From contig CAMAPH010000004.1 of the NCBI GenBank assembly GCA_945859975.1, positions 64,001-128,000 of the forward strand: a stretch of DNA of 64,000 nt. Reading direction: 5' to 3'. Source of the DNA: Chthonomonas calidirosea (GTDB lineage Bacteria; Armatimonadota; Fimbriimonadia; Fimbriimonadales; Fimbriimonadaceae). A model generated the notes under the pieces. The model worked only from the letters and a program-made list of their open reading frames with translations, was not told where the DNA came from and ran no database searches. A program made the position numbers and the translations under genes. Positions 137 to 40,527 of the stretch are shown piece after piece (the first letter of the stretch is position 1; the number at the start of each line of letters is the position of its first letter).

Positions 137-2512
137 TCAGTCTTCGTCGCGAACGTCCATCCCGAACCGGCGAACCGCGCCCGGATACGGCACGTTGCCC
201 TTCACGCTCCGCCAAATCGCTTCGTTCAAAGCGATTTCCTGGCTCAGCGTCAACTGGTCGGGCTCGGAGAAGTCGATCGCTGCGAGCAGCGGAGTTTCTT
301 TCGCCGCCGGATTCTTAGCTTCGAGGTCCGTCTTCGGCCGCTTGGCCACATACGGCGTGAGATCTGGCTTGTTGTGGAAGCTGCGATACATCGGCGTCGC
401 CGCGGCATCGAACTGGCTCATCGGCTGCAGGCCCAGGATCAACTCGATGGTTCGGACGGTCGAAGTCGTCGTGTAGTGAGTTCGGTCCAGGCCCGAGTTC
501 CGGGTGTACGGAGAAATCACGAGGCTGACCGTTCGGTGCGCGTCCACGTGGTCGGGACCGTTTTGCGCGTCGTCTTCCAGAACGAAGATTGCGAACTTCG
601 ACCAGTAACTGCTCTTGGAGATCGTCTCAACGAGCTTGCCAAGACCGTAGTCGTTGCTTGCCACCGATGCCTGTGGGGTAAAGGCTCCGGCCCGGGTTCC
701 ACTCGTGTGGTCTTCGCTCAGGGCCATCACCATGAAGTCCGGCATGGTCTTCTTCGCTTCGAATTCCTTGAACTCGTTGATGAAGATGTCGACCGCTTTG
801 TAGTCGCGCTCGTTCTTTGATCGCGCCGAAGCCCAGGCGTCGCTGCGCCGATCGGTGGTGTGATAGTAGTAGGTTCGATATGTCTTCCCGGCCCGACGAA
901 CCTGGTCCCAGATGAAGCCCGATGGGGTCGTCGAGAGTTCCAAGCTCAACCGCGGTGTTCCCTTTCCGCTGTACTGCTGCGGCCAGGTGCGCTGCATGAA
1001 GTCCGGAACGTAAGCGCCCTTACTCCAATGGTGCCCGTCAACCGAGACTTCTCCGCTCGCATAAAAGTTGTCTTGTAGAACGAAGTCCATTGCCAGTTGG
1101 CGGTGGTTCGGGGCGACGTCTTCTCCGAACAAAGTCAGTTTCGGATCACCGTTACCGTACGGCTTCCCGTTCTTCTTCAGGTCGCCGAACATCTGGTCGT
1201 AGGTTCGGTTTTCCTTGATGATGTACAGAACGTGCTTGATCGGCGATGGGTCGCCGAGGCGACTTGGGATTGGGCTCGTGCCAGCTTTCGGCGCGGTCAG
1301 TGGCTTTTCCACGACGCCTTCTCGGTACGGCGACAGATCGCGGACCTGCTTCGACATCTTGTCCAGCTCCGCTCCCTTCGGCACATCGACCTTTGTGAGC
1401 AGGCCTTTGAGGAGAACAACGATGTACGGATATCCCTTTGGCGCGATTGGATCGATCTTCTCGGTGTCGCCGTTCGGTCCGGTTCCATACCCTTTACCAG
1501 CAGCAGCAAGGAGCGTCTTGCCATCGGCGAGCACGCCGAGCGCGGTCGGATAAGCGCCGGTCGGAACAAACCCTTCCACCCGGGTCGCCATTCGGTCGGC
1601 GATATTCAAGATTCCGACGCAGTTGTTGTCTGAGTTTGCTACGTAGAGTCGCTTTCCGTCGGCGGTCAGGGCCAGTGCATGCGGGGTGGAGCCGGCCGGC
1701 GCATTGGGCCAAGGTCGGGTGTTGATTCGCTCTTCCCGCGTGCCGGTGTAGAGGTCGAAGATGTCAACCGTGTCGTCGTTTCCGCATGAGACAAAAAGTC
1801 GATCGCCCTGCACGAGCAGGTCGTTCGGGTGCCGTCCGGTTGCGTAGCTCTTCGTGATCGTGAATTCCGTCGCGTCGATTCGGATGGCTCGCTCTGCGCC
1901 TTGAAGCGAAACGAGCATGTCGTAGCCCACGCGTCGAACCTGGTGCGGAGATGACCCAACCGGCAACGCCAGCTTAGCGACGGACGCGCCCGTTTCGAGG
2001 TCAATCTTGCGGAGCTCATCTCCGGCCGCAAGGGCGACGACAACATACTTTTCATCCGCCGTTAGCTGTAACCCAGCCAGCCAGCCGGTGTTGCCCTTGA
2101 TCTCGGTAACCGGCAAAGTCTTTTCGAGTTTGAGTTCTCCATCCAGCGCGACCGAAACGATGTGAATGTTATTCCCGGTCCCGCCGCTCACCACGAGCTT
2201 GCTCGAATCTGCCATCCAAGCCATGCCGATCCACGCGCGGCCGAGGCTTAACTTCTTGGCAACTTTGCCCGTAGCAGCATCGACTACGAAGAGCTGATGA
2301 CTCCCTTGCCCCGCCGAAACGAAAGCGATCCATTTTCCGTTCGGGCTTGACACCCCACCCGCCGCGAGGTCGCCAATGGTTTCGCTCGGACCTGCCGGGG
2401 AGATTCGCCAACCAGAAGGGAGATAGGTCGCTACTTTCGGCTGAAAAGCGGTGAACGCAACGGCCGAGGCAACAACGGCGATTCCGGCGATGAGAGTTAG
2501 CTTCTTGTTCAT
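137..2512 (-). CDS. Secreted bifunctional YncE-like beta-propeller / alkaline phosphatase-superfamily phosphoesterase
   Basis: N-terminal signal peptide; YVTN-type propeller repeats (TGRHPNDL, LYVANSDNN); C-terminal IKHVLYIIKENRTYDQMFGD and EDDAQNGPDHVDAHR phosphoesterase motifs. Start moved to ATG 2512 (MNKKL). Confidence 0.85.
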   Translation of the reverse strand: MNKKLTLIAGIAVVASAVAFTAFQPKVATYLPSGWRISPAGPSETIGDLAAGGVSSPNGKWIAFVSAGQGSHQLFVVDAATGKVAKKLSLGRAWIGMAWMADSSKLVVSGGTGNNIHIVSVALDGELKLEKTLPVTEIKGNTGWLAGLQLTADEKYVVVALAAGDELRKIDLETGASVAKLALPVGSSPHQVRRVGYDMLVSLQGAERAIRIDATEFTITKSYATGRHPNDLLVQGDRLFVSCGNDDTVDIFDLYTGTREERINTRPWPNAPAGSTPHALALTADGKRLYVANSDNNCVGILNIADRMATRVEGFVPTGAYPTALGVLADGKTLLAAAGKGYGTGPNGDTEKIDPIAPKGYPYIVVLLKGLLTKVDVPKGAELDKMSKQVRDLSPYREGVVEKPLTAPKAGTSPIPSRLGDPSPIKHVLYIIKENRTYDQMFGDLKKNGKPYGNGDPKLTLFGEDVAPNHRQLAMDFVLQDNFYASGEVSVDGHHWSKGAYVPDFMQRTWPQQYSGKGTPRLSLELSTTPSGFIWDQVRRAGKTYRTYYYHTTDRRSDAWASARSKNERDYKAVDIFINEFKEFEAKKTMPDFMVMALSEDHTSGTRAGAFTPQASVASNDYGLGKLVETISKSSYWSKFAIFVLEDDAQNGPDHVDAHRTVSLVISPYTRNSGLDRTHYTTTSTVRTIELILGLQPMSQFDAAATPMYRSFHNKPDLTPYVAKRPKTDLEAKNPAAKETPLLAAIDFSEPDQLTLSQEIALNEAIWRSVKGNVPYPGAVRRFGMDVRDED

Positions 2513-2523
2513 TTCTGGGATTC

Positions 2524-3387
2524 TCACTTGCCCGCTTCGACCTTCGGAAGCGTGCTGACGATATCACGAAGCATCTTCTGCTCCTTCACGACAACTTGAG
2601 CCATAAGCTCGTCTACCTTTGCCTGCTTGGCCTCATCCGCCAGAGGCTTCTTGATGGCCACATCTTCGATCTCGGCCTTGCTCAGCCCAGCTTCTTTGCC
2701 GACCTCGCCGATCACGTTTCCAAGCTGGGTGCTCTGCTTCTCTCGGTACGACTTGCTCCAGCTCTTAAAGGCCGCCTGGTCTTTCTCCCAAGCCTTCGCG
2801 ATCTCCGGCGCGGACTTTGTGTAGTGCTTGATGCCGTCGGTGTACACCTGATTGATCAGCGACACGCCAGAAGCGACGCTCAGCGTGGTAATCGGCTCGA
2901 GCCCAATGATTCGGTAGCTCGCGAGCCTTAGCGCGGCAAAGTAATCGCTCGCGTCCTTGCCTTTCTCGGTCGCAAGCTTCTCACCGTGATTGGAGAGCGC
3001 GCGCAGAACGCTCAAACTCGACTCGTTCTCATAAGCCGGGAGCTCAGGGATGTAGTGAATGACATCCTTCTTTTCGTTGCCGGCAAGAAGCGACTTCAAA
3101 GCAGCGGATGTGTCGCCTTCCTTTGCGGCGACGGCGGCGCGAAGATAGTCCGTAAATCCGTTCTCGGGTTTCGCTTCTTCGGCGGTTTTCAGATACTCAC
3201 GCGCTTTTGCGGGTTCGAAGCTGGCGGTTTCGGAAACGCCCTTGAATGCGGCCCCTACCGTTGCATCAACATATTTCTGGTCCGGCGATTCGTTGGACTT
3301 CAGAATGTCTCCCCCGCGGGAGGCCCAAAGAAATCCGGCGACGGCCAAGAGAACGAATGCGATGGCGGGTAAGAACTTTTTTATCAT
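2524..3387 (-). CDS. Hypothetical helical protein with N-terminal membrane anchor or signal peptide
   Basis: Long ORF with a hydrophobic N-terminus (MIKKFLPAIAFVLLAVAGFLW), co-oriented with and 11 nt from the phosphoesterase gene. Confidence 0.7.
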   Translation of the reverse strand: MIKKFLPAIAFVLLAVAGFLWASRGGDILKSNESPDQKYVDATVGAAFKGVSETASFEPAKAREYLKTAEEAKPENGFTDYLRAAVAAKEGDTSAALKSLLAGNEKKDVIHYIPELPAYENESSLSVLRALSNHGEKLATEKGKDASDYFAALRLASYRIIGLEPITTLSVASGVSLINQVYTDGIKHYTKSAPEIAKAWEKDQAAFKSWSKSYREKQSTQLGNVIGEVGKEAGLSKAEIEDVAIKKPLADEAKQAKVDELMAQVVVKEQKMLRDIVSTLPKVEAGK

Positions 3388-3420
3388 GGGTGGGCTGCGC
3401 AAAGAGTAGCGGTTTTGCCG

Positions 3421-3453
3421 AGAAAAGGGTCCATCCCTTCCGGAATGGACCCT
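3421..3453 (-). terminator. Rho-independent terminator-like hairpin after prepilin-like gene 1
   Basis: Minus strand reads AGGGTCCATTCCG-GAA-GGGATGGACCCT-TTTCT. Confidence 0.7.
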
Positions 3454-3469
3454 GAGTTACGCGTTGACC

Positions 3470-4372
3470 TTATCGGTCGCAGCCGGCTTCTTTGACAGGG
3501 AAGCCGCAGTAATCTCTGCTCTCGGTTTCCCAATAGGTGAAGATTCCAGCCTGCTGGTATTCCCAAACGAGCTGTCGGATGGACTTCGCGGTGCCGGTGC
3601 TGGTTCGGTAATCCAGTTCCTTCTGGTACTTCGCGTGACCGTCTGCGAACGACCAGTTTCGGCCGCCCGTGTGTCGCTGTCCTCGCTCCCATCGACCGGT
3701 TCCGTTTCCGAGGTTGCCATAACCTGGGACGGTGTACCAACCGGAGAAGTTGAGGCCGCTGACTCGGGTCGAACCAACGTCGGTCGAGTAGAACATGTTG
3801 GCTGGCGTACCGATCTGGCTGAGGTTTCGGCCTCGATCGCCGGTCCATGGGCCCTCGCTGACTCGTCGGTAGCCTGGCATCAGAAGGTAGTTACCAGCGT
3901 ACGACGCAGGAAGAACCTTAACGAACTCGAGTCCGTTGTTGACGTCGGCCATGCCAACGTAAGCGCCTGGGACGCCAGCCGCCAAGAACATCTTTTCGAA
4001 GCAGCCTTCACCTGGCTTTCCGAAAACGCCCTTGTCAGCGTCGGCTGGACAAGCGATCATCTGCCAGTTCTTGCTGTATGGGAAGATGCCGGTGAGGAAG
4101 CTCTGAACACCCGAGAATTCGTCGTTGAGACCAGCGGTTCCGCCTGGAGCCGAGCAGGGTCCGATCCAGCCGGTTTCAGGAAGCATGTCATCGTAATCCG
4201 AGCTATAAAGAATAACCGCGGTACCGATCTGCTTCTGGTTGCTCAAAGATGTGGTTTTCTTTGCCGCTGCCTTGGCCTGGGCGAAAACTGGGAATAGGAT
4301 GGCGGCGAGAATCGCAATAATCGCGATAACGACGAGAAGTTCAATTAACGTAAAAGCATGCTTCTTGTGCAC
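3470..4372 (-). CDS. Prepilin-type N-terminal cleavage/methylation domain protein (DUF1559 / H-X9-DG family)
   Basis: AFTLIELLVVIAIIAILAAILFPVFAQAK N-terminus; C-terminal HTGGRNWSFADG (H-X9-DG); GGAGGAG SD at 4379-4385. Confidence 0.9.
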   Translation of the reverse strand: MHKKHAFTLIELLVVIAIIAILAAILFPVFAQAKAAAKKTTSLSNQKQIGTAVILYSSDYDDMLPETGWIGPCSAPGGTAGLNDEFSGVQSFLTGIFPYSKNWQMIACPADADKGVFGKPGEGCFEKMFLAAGVPGAYVGMADVNNGLEFVKVLPASYAGNYLLMPGYRRVSEGPWTGDRGRNLSQIGTPANMFYSTDVGSTRVSGLNFSGWYTVPGYGNLGNGTGRWERGQRHTGGRNWSFADGHAKYQKELDYRTSTGTAKSIRQLVWEYQQAGIFTYWETESRDYCGFPVKEAGCDR

Positions 4373-4402
4373 AATAGTCTCCTCCGGCTACCCGGACTGC
4401 CT

Positions 4403-4448
4403 AGCATAGGCATCGACCTTGTTAAGCAAGGGTTAAGTTTTCGTTAAA
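4403..4448 (-). promoter_or_regulatory. Pho-box-like triple direct repeat plus -10 box
   Basis: Minus strand TTTAACGA-aaa-CTTAACCC-ttg-CTTAACAA (11-bp period), then 10 nt, then TATGCT. Confidence 0.7.
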
Positions 4449-4508
4449 TCGTTCATAACAAATGAACCTTAACAGCATGTTAACCGTCAAAGGCGGCTTA
4501 CTTAGCTT

Positions 4509-4865
4509 ATGCGACGACTCATTTGGGCGGTTCTTCTGCTATCGGCTTTTGCACTAGTTGGGTGTGGAGAGTCCTCGGCACCGGTAAGCAGCGAGCAGAC
4601 CCGAGAAATGACCAGCACCCCATGGGGGATGTTCAGCGGCACCGGAAGAAGCGAAGGCATGCAAGTTCAATTTGATGCTGGAAACGAGATGACCTTCACC
4701 GATTCGACCGGCGCAAAGTCCGGAACGTACACCATGGACGAGGCAGCAAAACAGATCACCGTTGACCTCAATGGGCAGAAGCAAGTGTGGGGTTACAAGC
4801 GAGATGGCCTGAATCTAGAGATCACCTTCCAGGATGGTCGCACCGGCACGTTCACGATGCAGTGA
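4509..4865 (+). CDS. Small hypothetical lipoprotein
   Basis: Lipobox LVGC after a hydrophobic signal; beta-strand-rich body. Confidence 0.75.
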   Translation: MRRLIWAVLLLSAFALVGCGESSAPVSSEQTREMTSTPWGMFSGTGRSEGMQVQFDAGNEMTFTDSTGAKSGTYTMDEAAKQITVDLNGQKQVWGYKRDGLNLEITFQDGRTGTFTMQ

Positions 4866-4880
4866 TCGAAGTCTTAACAA

Positions 4881-6581
4881 ATGCTTAACTATGACGTCGC
4901 AATCATCGGGGGCGGTCCTGCCGGGAGTACGCTCGGTACCTTAATCAAGAAGTACGCACCAGATGCTTCCGTAGTCATATTGGAACGCGAGCAGTTTCCC
5001 CGTGAGCATGTCGGGGAAAGCCAGCTACCCCTTATCGGAAGCATCCTCGATGAGATGGGAGTCTGGGAGAAAGTCGAAGCCGCCAACTTCCCCATCAAAA
5101 TAGGCGCCACCTACCGCTGGGGCAAAACGGACGACCTTTGGGATTTCGAGTTTCTCCCGGGCAAAGACTTCGTCGGCGGAGATCGTCCGGCAAAGTACGA
5201 AGGTGAACGCCGCAAGACCGCATTCCAGGTCGAACGGTCCATCTACGACAAAATCCTCCTCGACCACGCCCGAGAATGCGGCTGCGAAGTTCGAGAAAAC
5301 ACGTCCGTCACCCAAGTTCTCCATGAGGGCGGGGCGGTTACCGGACTCCAGACCACAGGCGGTGAAGTCAAAGCCAAATACTATGTCGACGGAAGCGGAA
5401 ATGCCGCGATCCTTCGCCGCGCACTTGGCGTTACGGTTGACGAACCAAGCCGACTGAAGAACGTCGCCTTCTGGTCCTATTGGGACGATGCCGAGTGGGC
5501 GGTGACCCTTGGCAAGGGTGGAACGCGGGTCAATGTCATGAGTCTCGGGTACGGCTGGCTCTGGTTCATCCCGATCTCCGCCACCCGAGTCAGCGTCGGC
5601 CTCGTTCTCCCTGCCGATGCGTACAAAGCCAAGAAGCTCCGCCCAGAAGATCTGTACCTTGAGGCGATCCAGAGCGAAGCGCTGATTTCGAAGCTCTTAA
5701 GAAACGCGACTCAACATGGACCCGTCCACGGAACAAAGGACTGGTCCTTCGTTGCCAACCAAATGGCCGGGCCGAACTGGTACTTGGTTGGGGAAGCTGC
5801 CGGATTTGCTGATCCCATCCTCGCCGCCGGTCTCACTCTCACCCACACCGGTGCACGCGAGCTTGCGTACATCCTTGTGGATCACCTGAAAGGAACAAAT
5901 GATCGCGATTGGCTGGCTTCGCACTACCAAGTCACCCAACAAAAGCGGATTCGCCAGCACATCCGCTTTGCAGACTACTGGTACACCGCCAACGCTCACT
6001 TCTCCGAACTCAAGGAGTTCGTCACCGAAATCGCAAAAGACGCGGGATTGGAGCTGACGCCGAACGAAGCCTTCCAGTGGCTCGGTACTGGCGGATTCAT
6101 CAACGATGACTGGCGCGTGGCGCGGGTAGCAACGTTCGCCCTTGGCGCGACCAAGCAGCTCACCCAGTTCTTCGGCGAAGGCGATTCCACTTGGGAAATT
6201 TCGAAGTTCAGCCGCTTCCGAGCTAATCTTGCGGGTGCCGAAGTCGAGACCGTCCCCGCGTTCCACATGGGCCAAATCTTGCTTAAGCAGTCTCTCCGCC
6301 GAGGTGAGGAAGTGCTGCCTCTGGTCGGCGTCTACCAAAAGTTGGCCGACTTTCTACAGCTCGAACGTACCGCGCAAGAGGTTCAAACCTTTCTATCGAT
6401 CACATGCCCGTCCCCGGTGGCGTATACCAACGGCATCGAAGTCTTCGAAGCGATGCTCGTTGCCGGCTGGGTCACCGGCCGCTGCGGGGCCGGCATACCA
6501 GGGTTCGAAATCCGCACTCCCGACCAGTCCGAGGTTCTACATCTGAACAATGATCAAGTAGAACCAATGATGAATTCTTAA
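4881..6581 (+). CDS. Flavin-dependent halogenase-family FAD oxidoreductase
   Basis: GGGPAG, FPREHVGES, FPIK (candidate catalytic Lys), WLWFIP (WxWxIP), GEAAGFADP. Confidence 0.8.
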   Translation: MLNYDVAIIGGGPAGSTLGTLIKKYAPDASVVILEREQFPREHVGESQLPLIGSILDEMGVWEKVEAANFPIKIGATYRWGKTDDLWDFEFLPGKDFVGGDRPAKYEGERRKTAFQVERSIYDKILLDHARECGCEVRENTSVTQVLHEGGAVTGLQTTGGEVKAKYYVDGSGNAAILRRALGVTVDEPSRLKNVAFWSYWDDAEWAVTLGKGGTRVNVMSLGYGWLWFIPISATRVSVGLVLPADAYKAKKLRPEDLYLEAIQSEALISKLLRNATQHGPVHGTKDWSFVANQMAGPNWYLVGEAAGFADPILAAGLTLTHTGARELAYILVDHLKGTNDRDWLASHYQVTQQKRIRQHIRFADYWYTANAHFSELKEFVTEIAKDAGLELTPNEAFQWLGTGGFINDDWRVARVATFALGATKQLTQFFGEGDSTWEISKFSRFRANLAGAEVETVPAFHMGQILLKQSLRRGEEVLPLVGVYQKLADFLQLERTAQEVQTFLSITCPSPVAYTNGIEVFEAMLVAGWVTGRCGAGIPGFEIRTPDQSEVLHLNNDQVEPMMNS

Positions 6582-6611
6582 CAGTCACTTAACGCAATGG
6601 CGGAATACTCT
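6577..6611 (+). promoter_or_regulatory. Pho-box-like double direct repeat plus -10 box
   Basis: CTTAACAG-tca-CTTAACGC, then 10 nt, then TACTCT; upstream of prepilin-like gene 2 and the phytase. Confidence 0.7.
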
Positions 6612-6641
6612 TGCCCATCTGCGATTCCGCAGGTGAGCAAT

Positions 6642-7625
6642 ATGAAAAAGGCATTCACCCTCATCGAACTTTTGGTTGTTATTGCAATCATCGCAATCCT
6701 GGCCGCCATTCTCTTCCCTGTTTTCGCTCAGGCAAAGCAGGCCGCTAAGAAGACTGCCGACCTCAGCAACACCAAGCAGATCGGTCTCGGACTTCAGCTT
6801 TACATCGCAGACACGGACGACATGTTCCCGCCAAGCAACCACCGCGAGAACAACTCGTCGGCGAACGAAGTTCACTGGAGCTGGATGATTCTTCCTTACA
6901 TCAAGAGCGAGCAGCTGTTCGTTTCTCCAGCCGACACGATTGGCGGATGGGCACCGGGTTGCTTCAACGAAGCAAACAACAACCGAGGTTTCGGCAAGCC
7001 AGGAATCCAGCTTAATGGCTGCGTTCAGCAGGGCTACCAGGCTGGCGTCTTCACCCTTCAGGTCGGACGAATCTCCTACGTTGCTAACCAGGCCATCATC
7101 GGTCGAAAGCGACAAGACAGCGACACGTCGAACGTTGTTAGCTCAACCGCGATCGACGGCGTGAGCTCCACCATCCTCGTTGCACCAGCCACCGAAAAGC
7201 AGTTCTGCATGCAGACCACGGCCGGCGGCGAATTCCGCAGCTACCGACCAGCTTTCGGTATCGGACGAAGCGGACAGCGAGACCTCAGCGGTTCTTCGCT
7301 TCCTTCCGCAGCTGACCTTCCGCTCGAAGCACTCACCGTTAGCGGCGCAAACACCGCCACCGGAAAGTGGGCTGGAAAGGGCACCGTCGGTCAGGTCTTC
7401 GATTGCGAACTCCGAACCACCAACGGCGGCGCAACCCACACCCTTCGATACACGAACGGTGGCCGATTCGACCAGGGCAACAACTACGTCTTCGCAGACT
7501 CGTCCGCGAAGTTCCGAAACACGTTGCAGACCTTCGATGTCCGCAACTACGCTTGGGGCAAGCAGGCCTACTCGCTCGGCGGCAGCGTTGTTGTCGACCC
7601 AGCGACCGGCTTCCCAGTCAACTGA
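6642..7625 (+). CDS. Prepilin-type N-terminal cleavage/methylation domain protein (DUF1559-like)
   Basis: MKKAFTLIELLVVIAIIAILAAILFPVFAQAK; C-terminal FDQGNNYVFADS, a variant of H-X9-DG; AGGTGAG upstream of ATG 6642. Confidence 0.9.
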   Translation: MKKAFTLIELLVVIAIIAILAAILFPVFAQAKQAAKKTADLSNTKQIGLGLQLYIADTDDMFPPSNHRENNSSANEVHWSWMILPYIKSEQLFVSPADTIGGWAPGCFNEANNNRGFGKPGIQLNGCVQQGYQAGVFTLQVGRISYVANQAIIGRKRQDSDTSNVVSSTAIDGVSSTILVAPATEKQFCMQTTAGGEFRSYRPAFGIGRSGQRDLSGSSLPSAADLPLEALTVSGANTATGKWAGKGTVGQVFDCELRTTNGGATHTLRYTNGGRFDQGNNYVFADSSAKFRNTLQTFDVRNYAWGKQAYSLGGSVVVDPATGFPVN

Positions 7626-7645
7626 GCTTAAGCTCACATTCACGC

Positions 7646-7675
7646 GATGGCTACCGGGTACACCCGGTAGCCATC
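7646..7675. repeat. Perfect intergenic inverted repeat (mRNA stabiliser or partial terminator)
   Basis: GATGGCTACCGGG-TACA-CCCGGTAGCCATC with no U-tract; palindrome TGAGCTTAAGCTCA nearby at 7623-7636. Confidence 0.7.
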
Positions 7676-7692
7676 ACTGCGTCTACACCGCC

Positions 7693-8685
7693 ATGATCCA
7701 CGCCATCCTTCTTGCCGCCATCCCCTTCATCCCGCCAACGCTGGCCACCCAGCCGGTGCCCGACGATGCCGATGACCCCGCGATTTGGGTCAACAAATCC
7801 AATCCTTCGCAATCCCGCGTGATTGGGACCAACAAGGTTAAGCGACCAACCGGCGGACTTTACGTTTTCGACCTCGACGGCAAGGTCGTCCAAAAAATCT
7901 CTGGGCTGGATCGACCGAACAACGTCGACATCTATCAAAACTGGAACGGGCTCGATATCGCCGTTTGCACGGAGCGACTGCAGGGACGACTTCGAATCTA
8001 TAAAATCGATCCTAAGGGCACCCTGTCCGACCTCACCGGCAACACCGACGTCGCGATGAAAGGCACGGCCGACTACGGCGAGCCCATGGGCATCGCCCTT
8101 TGGAAATCGAAAATCACCGGCAACGTCTACGCCCTCGTGTCCCCTAAGCTCGGTCTGGCGGAGTCGTATCTGGAGCAATACCAGCTTAAGATGAACCCGG
8201 CGACCGCGAAAGTTGACGCGATCTTCGTCGGACGTACCGGCCAGTTCCTCGGCGGAAAAGAGATCGAATCGATCGCAACCTCGGTCGATGGGATCAGCGC
8301 CTTCTACAGCGACGAAACCTATGGCAATCGCCAACTCGTTCTTCAAGACCGCCCAAACGGCTACATGGACGCCCGTCCCGCCTGGAACACGGACTTCAAA
8401 GGCGACCACGAAGGCATTGGCCTTTGGGAGAAAGGCGCAAAACGATTCGCGGTCTTTACCGATCAGTTGAAGGACCGGAGCGTTTACACCGTGACCTCGT
8501 TCACCGGAACGCGACTCGGCCAGTTCACCGCTGGCGCAGATGAAACCGACGGCATCGCGGTCAGCTCCGCAAACCTAGGGCCAAAGTTCCCAGATGGCCT
8601 AATGGTGGTGATGGACAGCAAGAATCGGCGTTTTCTTTATTTGGGCTGGCGCGAGATCGCGCGAACGCTCAAACTAAAGAACTGA
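7693..8685 (+). CDS. phy: Beta-propeller phytase (3-phytase)
   Basis: DDADDPAIWVN, GLYVFDLDG, PNNVD, DHEGIGLW, DETDGI motifs; hydrophobic N-terminus from ATG 7693. Confidence 0.85.
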   Translation: MIHAILLAAIPFIPPTLATQPVPDDADDPAIWVNKSNPSQSRVIGTNKVKRPTGGLYVFDLDGKVVQKISGLDRPNNVDIYQNWNGLDIAVCTERLQGRLRIYKIDPKGTLSDLTGNTDVAMKGTADYGEPMGIALWKSKITGNVYALVSPKLGLAESYLEQYQLKMNPATAKVDAIFVGRTGQFLGGKEIESIATSVDGISAFYSDETYGNRQLVLQDRPNGYMDARPAWNTDFKGDHEGIGLWEKGAKRFAVFTDQLKDRSVYTVTSFTGTRLGQFTAGADETDGIAVSSANLGPKFPDGLMVVMDSKNRRFLYLGWREIARTLKLKN

Positions 8686-9797
8686 TGCCAGAAACCGAGA
8701 AGCCAGAGCACGAACGACCGGCGAGCCCCTGGGCGTTCCAGGTCGCGGTCGTTGCTGGCATCCCCGTTCGGCTTCACATCACGTTCCTCCTGTTCCTCGT
8801 TTGGATCGGCTGGACCGGTCAAAGCCAATCCGGTTGGCAATGGCCGATCTACGTTCTCGCGGTGTTCTTCTGCGTCGTGCTTCACGAATTCGGCCACGCC
8901 CTGACCGCCAAAAAGTACGGCATCAAAACCACGAACATCACGCTTTATCCGATCGGCGGAGTGGCGATGCTAGAAAGTCGCCCGACCGCAAAGCAGGAGC
9001 TTTGGGTGACCATCATGGGGCCAGCGGTGAACGTCGTCATCGCCGGGTTGCTGTACCTCTACATGTGGATTTCGCCGCAGCAGTTTCAGCTGACCAGCGA
9101 CATTCGCGTCGGCGGAATTCTGCCTGCGCTCTTTTTCACAAACATCTCCCTTGCCTTGTTTAATCTCATCCCGGCGTTCCCGATGGATGGAGGAAGGATT
9201 CTGCGCGCCGCGCTTTCGCTTCGATTGGGCGAGTTGCGAGCGACCCGGATCGCGGCCGGAGTTGGCCAAGTTGTCGCCATCGGGCTTGGCGTTGCGGGCA
9301 TCATCACCAGCCAGGTGATCCTGATGTTAATCGCCTTCTTCGTTTTCCTGGTAGCAGGGCAAGAGCTCACCTCGACCGTCACCCGATCTCTCCTGGCGGG
9401 CCGAAAAGTTCGCGATGCGATGATGCGAAACTTCGCCACTCTCCCGCACGGAACCACCCTTCAAGAAGCCAGCGAATTGCTGATCGCGGGCAGCCAAACC
9501 GACTTTCCCGTGACCTCGGGCAGCGACGTGCTCGGAATTCTCGAACGAAGCGAACTATCCATTGGCCTCACCGAAGATGGCCCCCACGCTTACGTTGCCG
9601 GTCGGATGAACCGTAACGCCAACCGTTGCCGACCCGATGACGACCTAGAGTGGGCCGCCGAACAATTCGCCGCCGCCGGAAGACGTCCCGTGCTTGTCAT
9701 GGAAGGCGACGACCTTGTGGGCATGCTCACTCAGGAGAACCTGAGCGAGTTCATCATGCTCCAAGACGCTGCCTCGCGCCGGAAAAAGACTGGCTAA
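8685..9797 (+). CDS. Site-2 protease (M50) with tandem CBS domains
   Basis: HEFGH, NLIPAFPMDGGR, C-terminal CBS pair. Confidence 0.92.
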   Translation: MPETEKPEHERPASPWAFQVAVVAGIPVRLHITFLLFLVWIGWTGQSQSGWQWPIYVLAVFFCVVLHEFGHALTAKKYGIKTTNITLYPIGGVAMLESRPTAKQELWVTIMGPAVNVVIAGLLYLYMWISPQQFQLTSDIRVGGILPALFFTNISLALFNLIPAFPMDGGRILRAALSLRLGELRATRIAAGVGQVVAIGLGVAGIITSQVILMLIAFFVFLVAGQELTSTVTRSLLAGRKVRDAMMRNFATLPHGTTLQEASELLIAGSQTDFPVTSGSDVLGILERSELSIGLTEDGPHAYVAGRMNRNANRCRPDDDLEWAAEQFAAAGRRPVLVMEGDDLVGMLTQENLSEFIMLQDAASRRKKTG

Positions 9798-39720: not shown

Positions 39721-39739
39721 CTTTACAGTGCCTTAACCC
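39721..39739 (+). promoter_or_regulatory. Pho-box-like double repeat upstream of the response regulator
   Basis: CTTTACAG-tgc-CTTAACCC, 11-bp period. Confidence 0.5.
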
Positions 39740-39852
39740 AAATCGGGCACAACTGAGTGATACTTGGCCGGGGAGACTTTTTTCCGGCAAGACATGAGGA
39801 ACCGCTTTTGGCTTTGGCTCAAGACTTGCAACCGGAGAATTTAGAGGGCAGC

Positions 39853-40527
39853 ATGATGAAGCTGTTGATCGTGGATGACGAACCCGTCATTCTGGAAACG
39901 GTCGAGGCGAAAATGCGCAAGGAAGGTTTCACGACCTTCGTTGCGGATTCCGCTGAAGAAGGAATGCGCCTCTTCCGCCGAATCAAGCCCGACCTCGTGA
40001 TCCTCGACATCATGCTGCCGCAGCGCTCTGGCTTCGACTTCTGCCGAGCGATTCGAAAGGACAGCAACACCCCAATCATTTTTGTCTCGGCCCGCGCTGA
40101 TGAAGCGGATCGTGTGAAGGGTCTCGAGCTCGGCGCCGACGACTACGTCGTCAAACCGTTCAACCTCGGTGAGCTTGCCGCGCGAGTCAAAGCGATTCTG
40201 CGACGCTCGACCGGAGAACCCGTTCGCGAGGTCATCGAGTCTGGCAACTTACGCGTCGATCCCCGAAGCCATGAGGCTTGGATTGATGACCGACCTTTGA
40301 ACCTTTCGCCAAAGGAGTTCGCACTGATGTACTTCCTCGGCCGAAACGTGGGCCAAGTCTTCTCCCGCGAAACCTTGCTGGACCGAGTGTGGGGCCGAGA
40401 GGCATTCATTTCTGGCCGGACCGTGGATGTTCACATGCGGTGGCTGCGAATCCGAATTGAGCCAGATCCAACCAACCCAACGCGGCTTCTCACCATCCGG
40501 GGCGTAGGCTATAAGTTCACGGGCTAG
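39853..40527 (+). CDS. OmpR/PhoB-family response regulator (PhoB/SphR-like)
   Basis: IVDDE, LDIMLP, GADDYVVKPF, recognition helix RTVDVHMRWLR, IRGVGY. Confidence 0.93.
   Translation: MMKLLIVDDEPVILETVEAKMRKEGFTTFVADSAEEGMRLFRRIKPDLVILDIMLPQRSGFDFCRAIRKDSNTPIIFVSARADEADRVKGLELGADDYVVKPFNLGELAARVKAILRRSTGEPVREVIESGNLRVDPRSHEAWIDDRPLNLSPKEFALMYFLGRNVGQVFSRETLLDRVWGREAFISGRTVDVHMRWLRIRIEPDPTNPTRLLTIRGVGYKFTG

Follow-up and report, generated by a model that had tools for sequence, protein, structure and literature searches.

Why does a bacterium of the Armatimonadota place genes for prepilin-like proteins next to genes for secreted phosphate-releasing enzymes, twice within 8.7 kb? The question is raised by the window analysed here, a 64,000-nt stretch (positions 64,001–128,000) of contig CAMAPH010000004.1, contig C4 of the source genome GCA_945859975.1, named Chthonomonas calidirosea. 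The source genome comprises 3.1 Mb, is 95.8% complete and yields 2858 called genes, 50 of which are of the DUF1559 prepilin-like type, a family that ranks among the largest function-unknown paralog families of Planctomycetota and their relatives. One module of the locus combines the prepilin-like gene pilA with a secreted phosphoesterase (PE), and the other combines pilB with a beta-propeller phytase (Table 1). From comparison with relatives, it is highly probable that the variable head of PilB (type B) and a second head without detectable homology to it (type X) are coupled to phytase function, and the repeated element ahead of these genes is very probably a Pho box. The first-pass annotation had described the succession of prepilin-like gene, hairpin and secreted phosphohydrolase as occurring twice, and the genes, boxes and hairpins all lie where it placed them. 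Its modules are as described, but it overlooked two genes between them, encoding a lipoprotein and a halogenase-like protein, both with boxes of their own.

Both PilA and PilB carry a class III signal peptide with Phe1 and Glu5 that scores above the cut-offs of PF07963 and TIGR02532. PilB passes PF07596 (29.5 vs 23.3 bits) and misses TIGR04294, and PilA passes TIGR04294 (20.5 vs 19 bits) and misses PF07596 at E ≤ 0.001. By these matches, both are members of the DUF1559 (PF07596, SBP_bac_10)/H-X9-DG (TIGR04294) prepilin-like family, with which they share the class III signal, the conserved N-terminal helix, the C-terminal motif and a complement of about 50 paralogs per genome. The closest pilB relatives carry the source names Fimbriimonadaceae and Armatimonadota. 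In their accessible portions, four papers call DUF1559 a solute-binding family and give no ligand (PMC2754498, PMC4807772, PMC10632474, PMC8567305), PMC5352709 also names the family, and Planctopirus is credited with 68 copies (PMC10632474). Two of the papers PMC10632474, PMC2754498, PMC4807772 and PMC5352709, in the same portions, describe it as restricted to Planctomycetes or to the Planctomycetes–Verrucomicrobia–Chlamydiae group. Unlike in these published accounts, the family is found here in Armatimonadota and with a named partner enzyme. That enzyme is a beta-propeller phytase by its family match (PF02333, 89 bits vs a cut-off of 21; E 2e-22 to solved 3-phytases) and by its acidic motifs DADDP, E-x-E and D-x-T-D-G, whose columns are invariant across 25 relatives.

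The strongest evidence for a functional connection comes from the distribution of the heads. In 14 of 25 phytase loci taken from relatives, the gene immediately upstream belongs to DUF1559, in every case with a head of type B or X. The order was surveyed in 195 genomes, with PF02333 found in 94, X in 65 and B in 32, where B was counted above 250 bits, a cut set at a gap in the scores after viewing the list. B or X is present in 85 of the 94 phytase genomes vs 4 of the 101 others, and in 70 of 79 phytase genomes when the 15 genomes that seeded the profiles are left aside; the odds ratio for the phytase link is 229 for B or X vs 11 for pilA. The large head searches scored the best 10–15 candidates per genome, a cap that might have concealed heads in big genomes; when large phytase-less genomes were rescored in full, X was absent from all 9 examined for it and B from all 4, with the positive controls recovered. 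The two heads are complementary, B being found where X is absent: 56 of the phytase genomes hold X only, 23 B only, 6 both and 9 neither (two weak X matches taken as absent). The pairing with phytase proposed from this one locus is found across relatives, both as conserved synteny and as genome-wide co-occurrence of B/X.

Physical linkage does not explain this pattern, since head and phytase lie about 1 Mb apart in several single-contig genomes (0.8–1.2 Mb in G120, G173, G051 and G176). The head is located within 2 kb of the phytase in only 39 of the 94 genomes, a count for which two weak second phytase pieces were dropped and two pieces of one X gene merged. In genera that are mixed for phytase, the phytase-less members are mostly without B and X (genus g1: 2/23). 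Moreover, a Pho-boxed paralog of B has no link with phytase (36 genomes with, 28 without) and may serve as a natural negative control that has a different phosphorus ligand. This paralog (C2:124857-125867) occurs in 64 further genomes and lacks several of the conserved basic residues of B.

The exchange of heads is visible at the locus itself. B and X have only the family C-terminal motif in common, and in genome G014 X occupies the slot of B, flanked by lipoprotein, halogenase, pilA and phytase genes that are 96–100% identical to those of the window (96.5% for the phytase). DNA homology between the two loci stops near 6821, within pilB, and returns near 7744, within the phytase gene. In genome G171, B, phytase and X stand in a row. 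Outside the order, about 245 genomes were surveyed for phytase and X (of 281 genomes, G000 itself, 33 members of its family and two more from its order were set aside); phytase is found in 25, X in 26 and both in 21, with X directly upstream in 16 (adjacency judged by eye). Of the five X genomes without a phytase call in this set, two have a divergent phytase, one a PF13449 phytase-like gene and one a purple acid phosphatase directly downstream. X was reached at 5 loci by a DNA-pattern search and in 26 clusters at E ≤ 1e-30 by a representative search.

A common promoter element connects the two modules with the phosphorus genes of the genome. The single hexamer CTTAAC is mildly enriched in the window (24 copies vs 14.4 expected). 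The exact pair CTTAAC-N5-CTTAAC occurs four times in the 3.1-Mb genome, three of them in the pilA-pilB locus, and CTTAAC pairs with the other spacers of 0 to 19 nt occur at most once each genome-wide. At both pilA and pilB the box ends 12 nt ahead of a TANNNT hexamer, and the pilB box at 6577-6593 reads CTTAACAGTCACTTAAC. Pho boxes of the Escherichia coli type are direct repeats of 11-bp period situated about 10–12 nt before the −10 element. The element described here has the same period and a like position before the −10, and its set likewise includes pstS, phosphatases and a phytase, but its half-site is CTTAAC. At up to two mismatches it precedes 45 genes of the source genome, including pstS, an alkaline phosphatase, three metallophosphoesterases (purple acid phosphatases are among the boxed genes), a second PE and a PhnZ-like HD oxygenase. 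For several boxed genes a role in phosphorus metabolism is not apparent, and part of the set is probably boxed by chance.

DUF1559 genes are strongly over-represented in this set, 15 of 50 being boxed vs 30 of 2808 other genes, again at up to two mismatches. Spacers of 3, 4, 6, 7 and 8 nt give 0–3 boxed DUF1559 genes of 50, so the excess is specific to the 5-nt spacer, and shuffled upstream regions give a mean of 0.33. DUF1559 genes make up 15 of the 45 boxed genes, a share that is filled in Caulobacter by TonB-dependent receptors (TBDTs), which along with a phytase are members of its PhoB regulon (PMC11208175). The box is also conserved in relatives. With a single locus of an unpublished genome set aside, it stands ahead of 12 of 18 close orthologs of pstS vs 1 of 11 genes for distant binding proteins. 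In the fetched loci it is retained ahead of B genes in 15 of 24 cases, X genes in 9 of 15 and pilA genes in 15 of 22, vs 1 of 11 for other DUF1559 genes. The best PhoB candidate of the genome, which lies in the window, scores 226 bits, below the TIGR02154 cut-off of 296, and no kinase gene stands beside it. Since the element precedes pstS, phosphatases, this PhoB candidate and 15 of 50 DUF1559 genes, it is very probably a Pho box as judged by its sequence context. The Pho-type control of the prepilin-like genes that the first-pass annotation had read from the repeats finds support in this motif evidence, that is, in the box shared with pstS and phosphatases and in its conservation among relatives. 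In addition, two other DUF1559 paralogs follow a thiamine pyrophosphate (TPP) riboswitch and a cobalamin riboswitch match, the latter below the family cut-off. Together with the Pho boxes, these elements make the paralogs look divided among nutrient regulons. A gene of the WecB/TagA glycosyltransferase family (C63:3841-4590) is boxed with one mismatch, which hints at envelope remodelling under phosphate starvation.

The predicted model of PilB (predicted local distance difference test, pLDDT, 95.9, from 70 sequences) resembles type IV pilins. Among its structural matches, 19 of 21 rows are pilins (best Z 4.3, root-mean-square deviation 3.8, 120 aligned residues), and ComP is one of them (Z 3.3, root-mean-square deviation 4.2, 101 aligned). 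The alignments run from the N-terminal helix to the C-terminal sheet, which implies a type IV pilin core with a head of about 200 residues inserted within it. The model has no Foldseek match at E ≤ 0.001, and no enzyme fold appears among its structural matches. The PilA model is predicted at a pLDDT of 40. A complex prediction for the PilB head with the phytase scores 0.01, which gives no verdict and is used neither way. As for the residues of the heads, X conserves seven acidic positions, three His and many aromatic positions, Trp included, and contains a Glu/His/Asp cluster (N-E-H, E, D-x-E-x-x-D-E) that B does not have; metal-bridged ligand binding by X is a guess from this pattern. A cationic pocket, put forward as a trait of these proteins, is rejected as a marker of the family: conserved Lys/Arg positions number 12 in B (including an R-K-R run), no more than the 12 of pilA, and 1 in X.

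How might a pilin-like protein serve phosphate scavenging? On balance, we lean towards PilA and PilB being substrate-capture subunits of a type IV filament, with phytate or its product as the ligand of PilB. Under phosphate starvation, a PhoB-type activator would bind the CTTAAC-N5-CTTAAC boxes and thereby induce the secreted phosphohydrolases together with pilA, pilB and roughly one in three DUF1559 genes, as the motif suggests. PilA and PilB would then be proteins of type IV pilin fold, as predicted for PilB, with a large inserted head that is presumably ligand-specific. The B/X head probably binds a phytate-related ligand, and that of PilB would serve phytate use by binding phytate, probably either in metal-complexed form or as a lower inositol phosphate. 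PilB may be a minor subunit of one of the type IV filament machines and would either hold its ligand at the envelope or draw it through a secretin to the phytase, and Pst would import the phosphate released. The delivery of ligand across the outer membrane by the filament is the more tentative step, to which we give somewhat less than an even chance. Head X would do the same job in most relatives, and PilA may have a like role for another organophosphate.

The machinery for such a process is encoded in the source genome, which contains three secretins, four PilB/GspE-like and four shorter PilT-like ATPases and a full type II secretion system (T2SS) cluster. No TBDT is found there (no PF00593 match; genome 95.8% complete), and none in 124 of the 195 relatives. 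In 27 genomes that hold both a TBDT and a phytase, the two are nowhere adjacent when compared by eye. At C6:52911-56844, seven near-identical pilin genes of 130 aa stand in tandem next to a PilB ATPase and a secretin, a candidate filament backbone. A cluster at C13:33176-39869 has the order pilB-pilT-pilC-prepilin peptidase-like and is followed by a conserved DUF1559-like gene, and in genome G071 a head-B gene is inserted within a cluster of this kind.

The place proposed for PilB is held by a TBDT or PusD in other diderms. In Flavobacterium, a phosphate-induced TBDT (Fjoh_1368) adjoins a PF02333 phytase (Fjoh_1367) and PusCD pairs sit with phosphatases (PMC8115612, in the text accessible); for PusCD, induction, mutants and a ligand-bound structure are reported in the accessible parts of PMC8115612 and bioRxiv 10.64898/2026.09.03.749221. 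The likeness extends to a capture gene of low-phosphate type adjoining a secreted phosphohydrolase, PF02333 phytase included, and to the convergence of the unrelated PusD1 and PusD2 on a single class of ligand, which has an apparent counterpart in B and X. The difference lies in the capture part, a TonB-dependent barrel with a SusD-like lipoprotein there and a pilin-fold protein, known from sequence, in a genome with no TBDT found here. With no TonB barrel, and with a pilin-like gene as the capture part beside a secreted phosphohydrolase under Pho-type boxes, the locus falls outside the TBDT/PusCD class, though it appears to work alike. The comparison of these proteins with TonB receptors and SusD, drawn in the first-pass annotation, fits in this respect of the slot they fill; the cationic pocket attached to it finds no support as a family trait. 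Minor pilins that bind ligands provide the other precedent. The minor pilin ComP of Neisseria is a DNA receptor. PilB and PilC of Streptococcus sanguinis are, in what is accessible of their description, ligand-binding minor type IV pilins. In these proteins as in PilB of the window a pilin core carries the part that gives specificity, but their ligands are DNA or host glycans and a genome encodes only a few of them, whereas here the pilin fold appears to contain the head as an insertion, and the paralogs, dozens in number, are distributed over nutrient regulons.

Several results weigh against the capture reading. No gene for an inner-membrane transporter is present in the pilA-pilB locus, the Z-scores of the PilB model to pilins are low (best 4.3), and B and X have no phosphate-binding signature in common. 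At least one TBDT is encoded in 71 of the 195 relatives, most of which have 1–3. Neither head is found in 9 of the 94 phytase genomes of the order, in 7 of which the phytase is divergent (≤31.5% identical, or no match), and full rescoring did not find X in 4 of the 25 phytase genomes outside it, so the enzyme can be retained without the pilin. Conversely, three B genomes (G020, G030, G108) and two X genomes (G151, G285) yielded no phytase. Of the 34 genomes with pilA, 30 carry phytase, an enrichment by which part of the B/X signal reflects a general covariation of phosphorus-scavenging genes. Finally, the genomes counted include kin and are not independent, by which the significance is overstated.

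The main rivals of the capture reading are adhesion and a periplasmic binder that is never assembled. As a surface adhesin without import, the head would hold the cell on insoluble Ca- or Fe-phytate or on phosphate-rich particles, and Pst would catch the freed phosphate. All regulon and co-occurrence results are compatible with such a role, as is a locus without a transporter gene; the conserved acidic and His residues of X suit metal-bridged binding, and glycan-binding minor pilins are known (PMC9934059, in its accessible part). We nevertheless judge it unlikely, since paralogs follow the TPP and (sub-cut-off) cobalamin riboswitches, and soluble ligands of this sort fit uptake better. Slightly less likely is a binding or sensing protein of pilin fold that stays anchored in the inner membrane and concentrates or senses phytate products in the periplasm. 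The Pfam name SBP_bac_10 and the description as a solute-binding family (PMC2754498) are in line with it, as are Tuwongella members of the family in detergent-extracted fractions (PMC8567305) and a Legionella pilin that aids iron acquisition independently of piliation (PMC13170364), all as given in the accessible sections. The class III signal argues for assembly instead: its Glu5 is invariant in 70 B sequences, and the PilB leader ends in Ala-Phe, as in the seven short tandem pilins of the genome. In addition, neither a transporter nor a kinase is linked to the locus.

The remaining explanations are less probable still. An enzyme-specific adaptor would load the phytase or phosphoesterase onto the T2SS or a type IV filament for export or display, in agreement with secreted partner enzymes, an encoded T2SS cluster and the presence of a DUF1559 gene within two genes of 5 of the 15 phosphohydrolase genes of the source genome (background 161 of 2808 genes). 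This idea is weakened by the finding that two unrelated heads serve the same phytase, with a swap beside nearly identical enzymes, and that X also precedes the unrelated PF13449 and purple acid phosphatase enzymes; a shared substrate is likelier than a shared protein surface, and we consider an adaptor improbable. The conserved Glu/His/Asp cluster of X could also mark the head as an enzyme in its own right, a metal-dependent phosphohydrolase or an accessory enzyme carried on a filament, but the cluster is absent from B and the PilB model matches no enzyme fold, which leaves this option very improbable. Equally so is a mere co-regulation and linkage by descent of neighbours in a Pho-regulated region that share no substrate. 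With 50 paralogs per genome, chance adjacency is common (5.7% of genes), and phosphorus genes do covary, as the pilA control indicates. However, the co-occurrence holds for unlinked genes, the slot is filled by two head types only, the Pho-boxed B paralog has no phytase link and the phytase-less members of mixed genera mostly lack both heads.

If the capture reading is extended to the family, DUF1559 proteins may be exchangeable ligand-binding filament subunits that replace TonB receptors for the import of scarce nutrients, with B and X as independently evolved phytate receptors swapped between strains as cassettes reaching from the conserved N-terminal helix to the phytase start. We advance this extension tentatively, as rather short of an even chance. 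Small nutrients would then cross the outer membrane independently of TonB receptors in lineages poor in such receptors, and phytate turnover would have a player that has gone unrecognised. A pilin-like protein almost limited to phytase-carrying relatives gives a huge family one specific phosphorus ligand to test, and the locus offers a cheap and defined ligand, two unrelated heads, a promoter element from which the inducing condition can be predicted and, as a control, a naturally occurring swap. In the literature searched, no paper links DUF1559/H-X9-DG proteins to phytase, Pho boxes or phosphorus uptake, although subscription papers and supplements may bear on novelty; relative to that literature, the tie of DUF1559 heads to phytase and Pho-type boxes appears to be new.

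The pairing of pilA with PE is less tight. Orthologs of pilA are present in 34 of the 195 genomes of the order and lie within 3 kb of a phosphoesterase in at least 14 of these 34. Among the matches listed, a close PE ortholog is found in 14 genomes, 12 of which have pilA within 3 kb, in two gene orders, and at least two further genomes pair pilA with another PE subfamily; 197 weaker PE matches lie outside those listed, hence the lower bound. In family f4, pilA is retained in eleven genomes for which no PE match is listed, and 18 of 20 fetched pilA loci are without PE, the box being kept in most. Of the two proposed pairings, that of B/X with the phytase is well supported and that of pilA with the phosphoesterase less so. 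Given the partial pairing and the f4 genomes, "for phosphoesters" names no ligand, and pilA is better regarded as a conserved, putatively Pho-regulated head without a named ligand. The PilA head has 25 conserved aromatic positions and two Cys; that the aromatic residues form a cage around a ligand of the choline type is a guess. Three more pairs, each an enzyme gene with a boxed DUF1559 gene immediately downstream, are located at C64:8442-12489, C24:24238-27550 and C32:26410-28315; two of the enzymes are phosphoesterases and the third is a glycerophosphodiester phosphodiesterase.

Table 1 Features of the pilA-pilB locus and the PhoB candidate, in window coordinates
Feature	Position	Strand	Basis or remark
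PE: secreted YncE-like beta-propeller with PF04185 phosphoesterase, 791 aa	137..2512	minus	domain matches
Hypothetical protein, 287 aa, N-terminal hydrophobic anchor	2524..3387	minus	gene call
Hairpin with short U-run (UUUU), terminator-like or mRNA-stabilising	3426..3453	minus, after pilA	z −3.7
pilA: prepilin-like H-X9-DG protein, 300 aa	3470..4372	minus	Pho-boxed clade, often near phosphoesterase
pilA promoter: three half-sites, 11-bp period (4421-4448); −10 TATGCT (4403-4408)	4403..4448	minus	
Pho-type box CTTAAC-N5-GTTAAC ahead of lipoprotein gene, divergent from pilA	4468..4484	plus	kept in G014 and G036
Lipoprotein, 118 aa	4509..4865	plus	gene call
Exact box overlapping the halogenase ATG	4873..4889	plus	second half-site altered in G036
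Flavin-dependent halogenase-like protein, 566 aa (PF04820)	4881..6581	plus	family expanded in the order
pilB promoter: exact box (6577-6593), −10 TACTCT (6606-6611)	6577..6611	plus	
pilB: prepilin-like DUF1559 protein (PF07963 and PF07596), 327 aa, head type B	6642..7625	plus	phytase-coupled
Strong hairpin without U-run, pilB-phytase spacer	7646..7675	plus	z −5.7
Beta-propeller phytase (PF02333), 330 aa, short N-terminal signal	7693..8685	plus	
PhoB candidate scoring best in the genome (OmpR family, 39853-40527) and its box, about 115 nt upstream	39731..40527	plus	

Further features of the locus are as follows. The pilA start codon GTG is preceded by GGAGG, and the ATG of pilB by the weaker AGGTGAG. 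No −10 element follows the box that overlaps the halogenase ATG. The hairpins after pilA and pilB each beat all 200 shuffles, and stems are present in most other pilin-to-enzyme spacers folded, for which no shuffle control was made. Two freshwater metatranscriptome assemblies contain 0.07 of the sampled words, and pilA, pilB, phytase and PE are each covered in part by contigs from a relative; assembled contigs of this kind can neither show transcription nor rank genes. PE has eight paralogous matches within the source genome. The 287-aa hypothetical protein has no match in Pfam or NCBIfam, matches only unnamed clusters of the Atlas at ≥0.9, with TPR leads below 0.9. Of the 20 other loci fetched, 4 carry its gene immediately 3′ of the pilA ortholog. 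The protein is 75% identical in G014, where most neighbours reach 96–100%, and may be a second gene that is locally exchanged or fast-evolving.

The 118-aa lipoprotein matches no Pfam or NCBIfam family at threshold. A small lipoprotein gene is divergent to pilA orthologs in several relatives, and 15 of the 50 DUF1559 genes of the source genome lie beside one. Downstream, an M50 peptidase-CBS gene (8685-9797) overlaps the stop codon of the phytase and is found 3′ of the phytase in 5 of the 25 relatives' loci. The flavin-dependent halogenase-like family occurs in 44 of 121 genomes of the order, with up to 11 or more copies, and the source genome has another copy at C32:28363-30108. A DUF1559 start lies within 1.5 kb in 14 of 30 halogenase-like loci (L136-L165), or in 10 of 26 when the window's own locus type is left aside.

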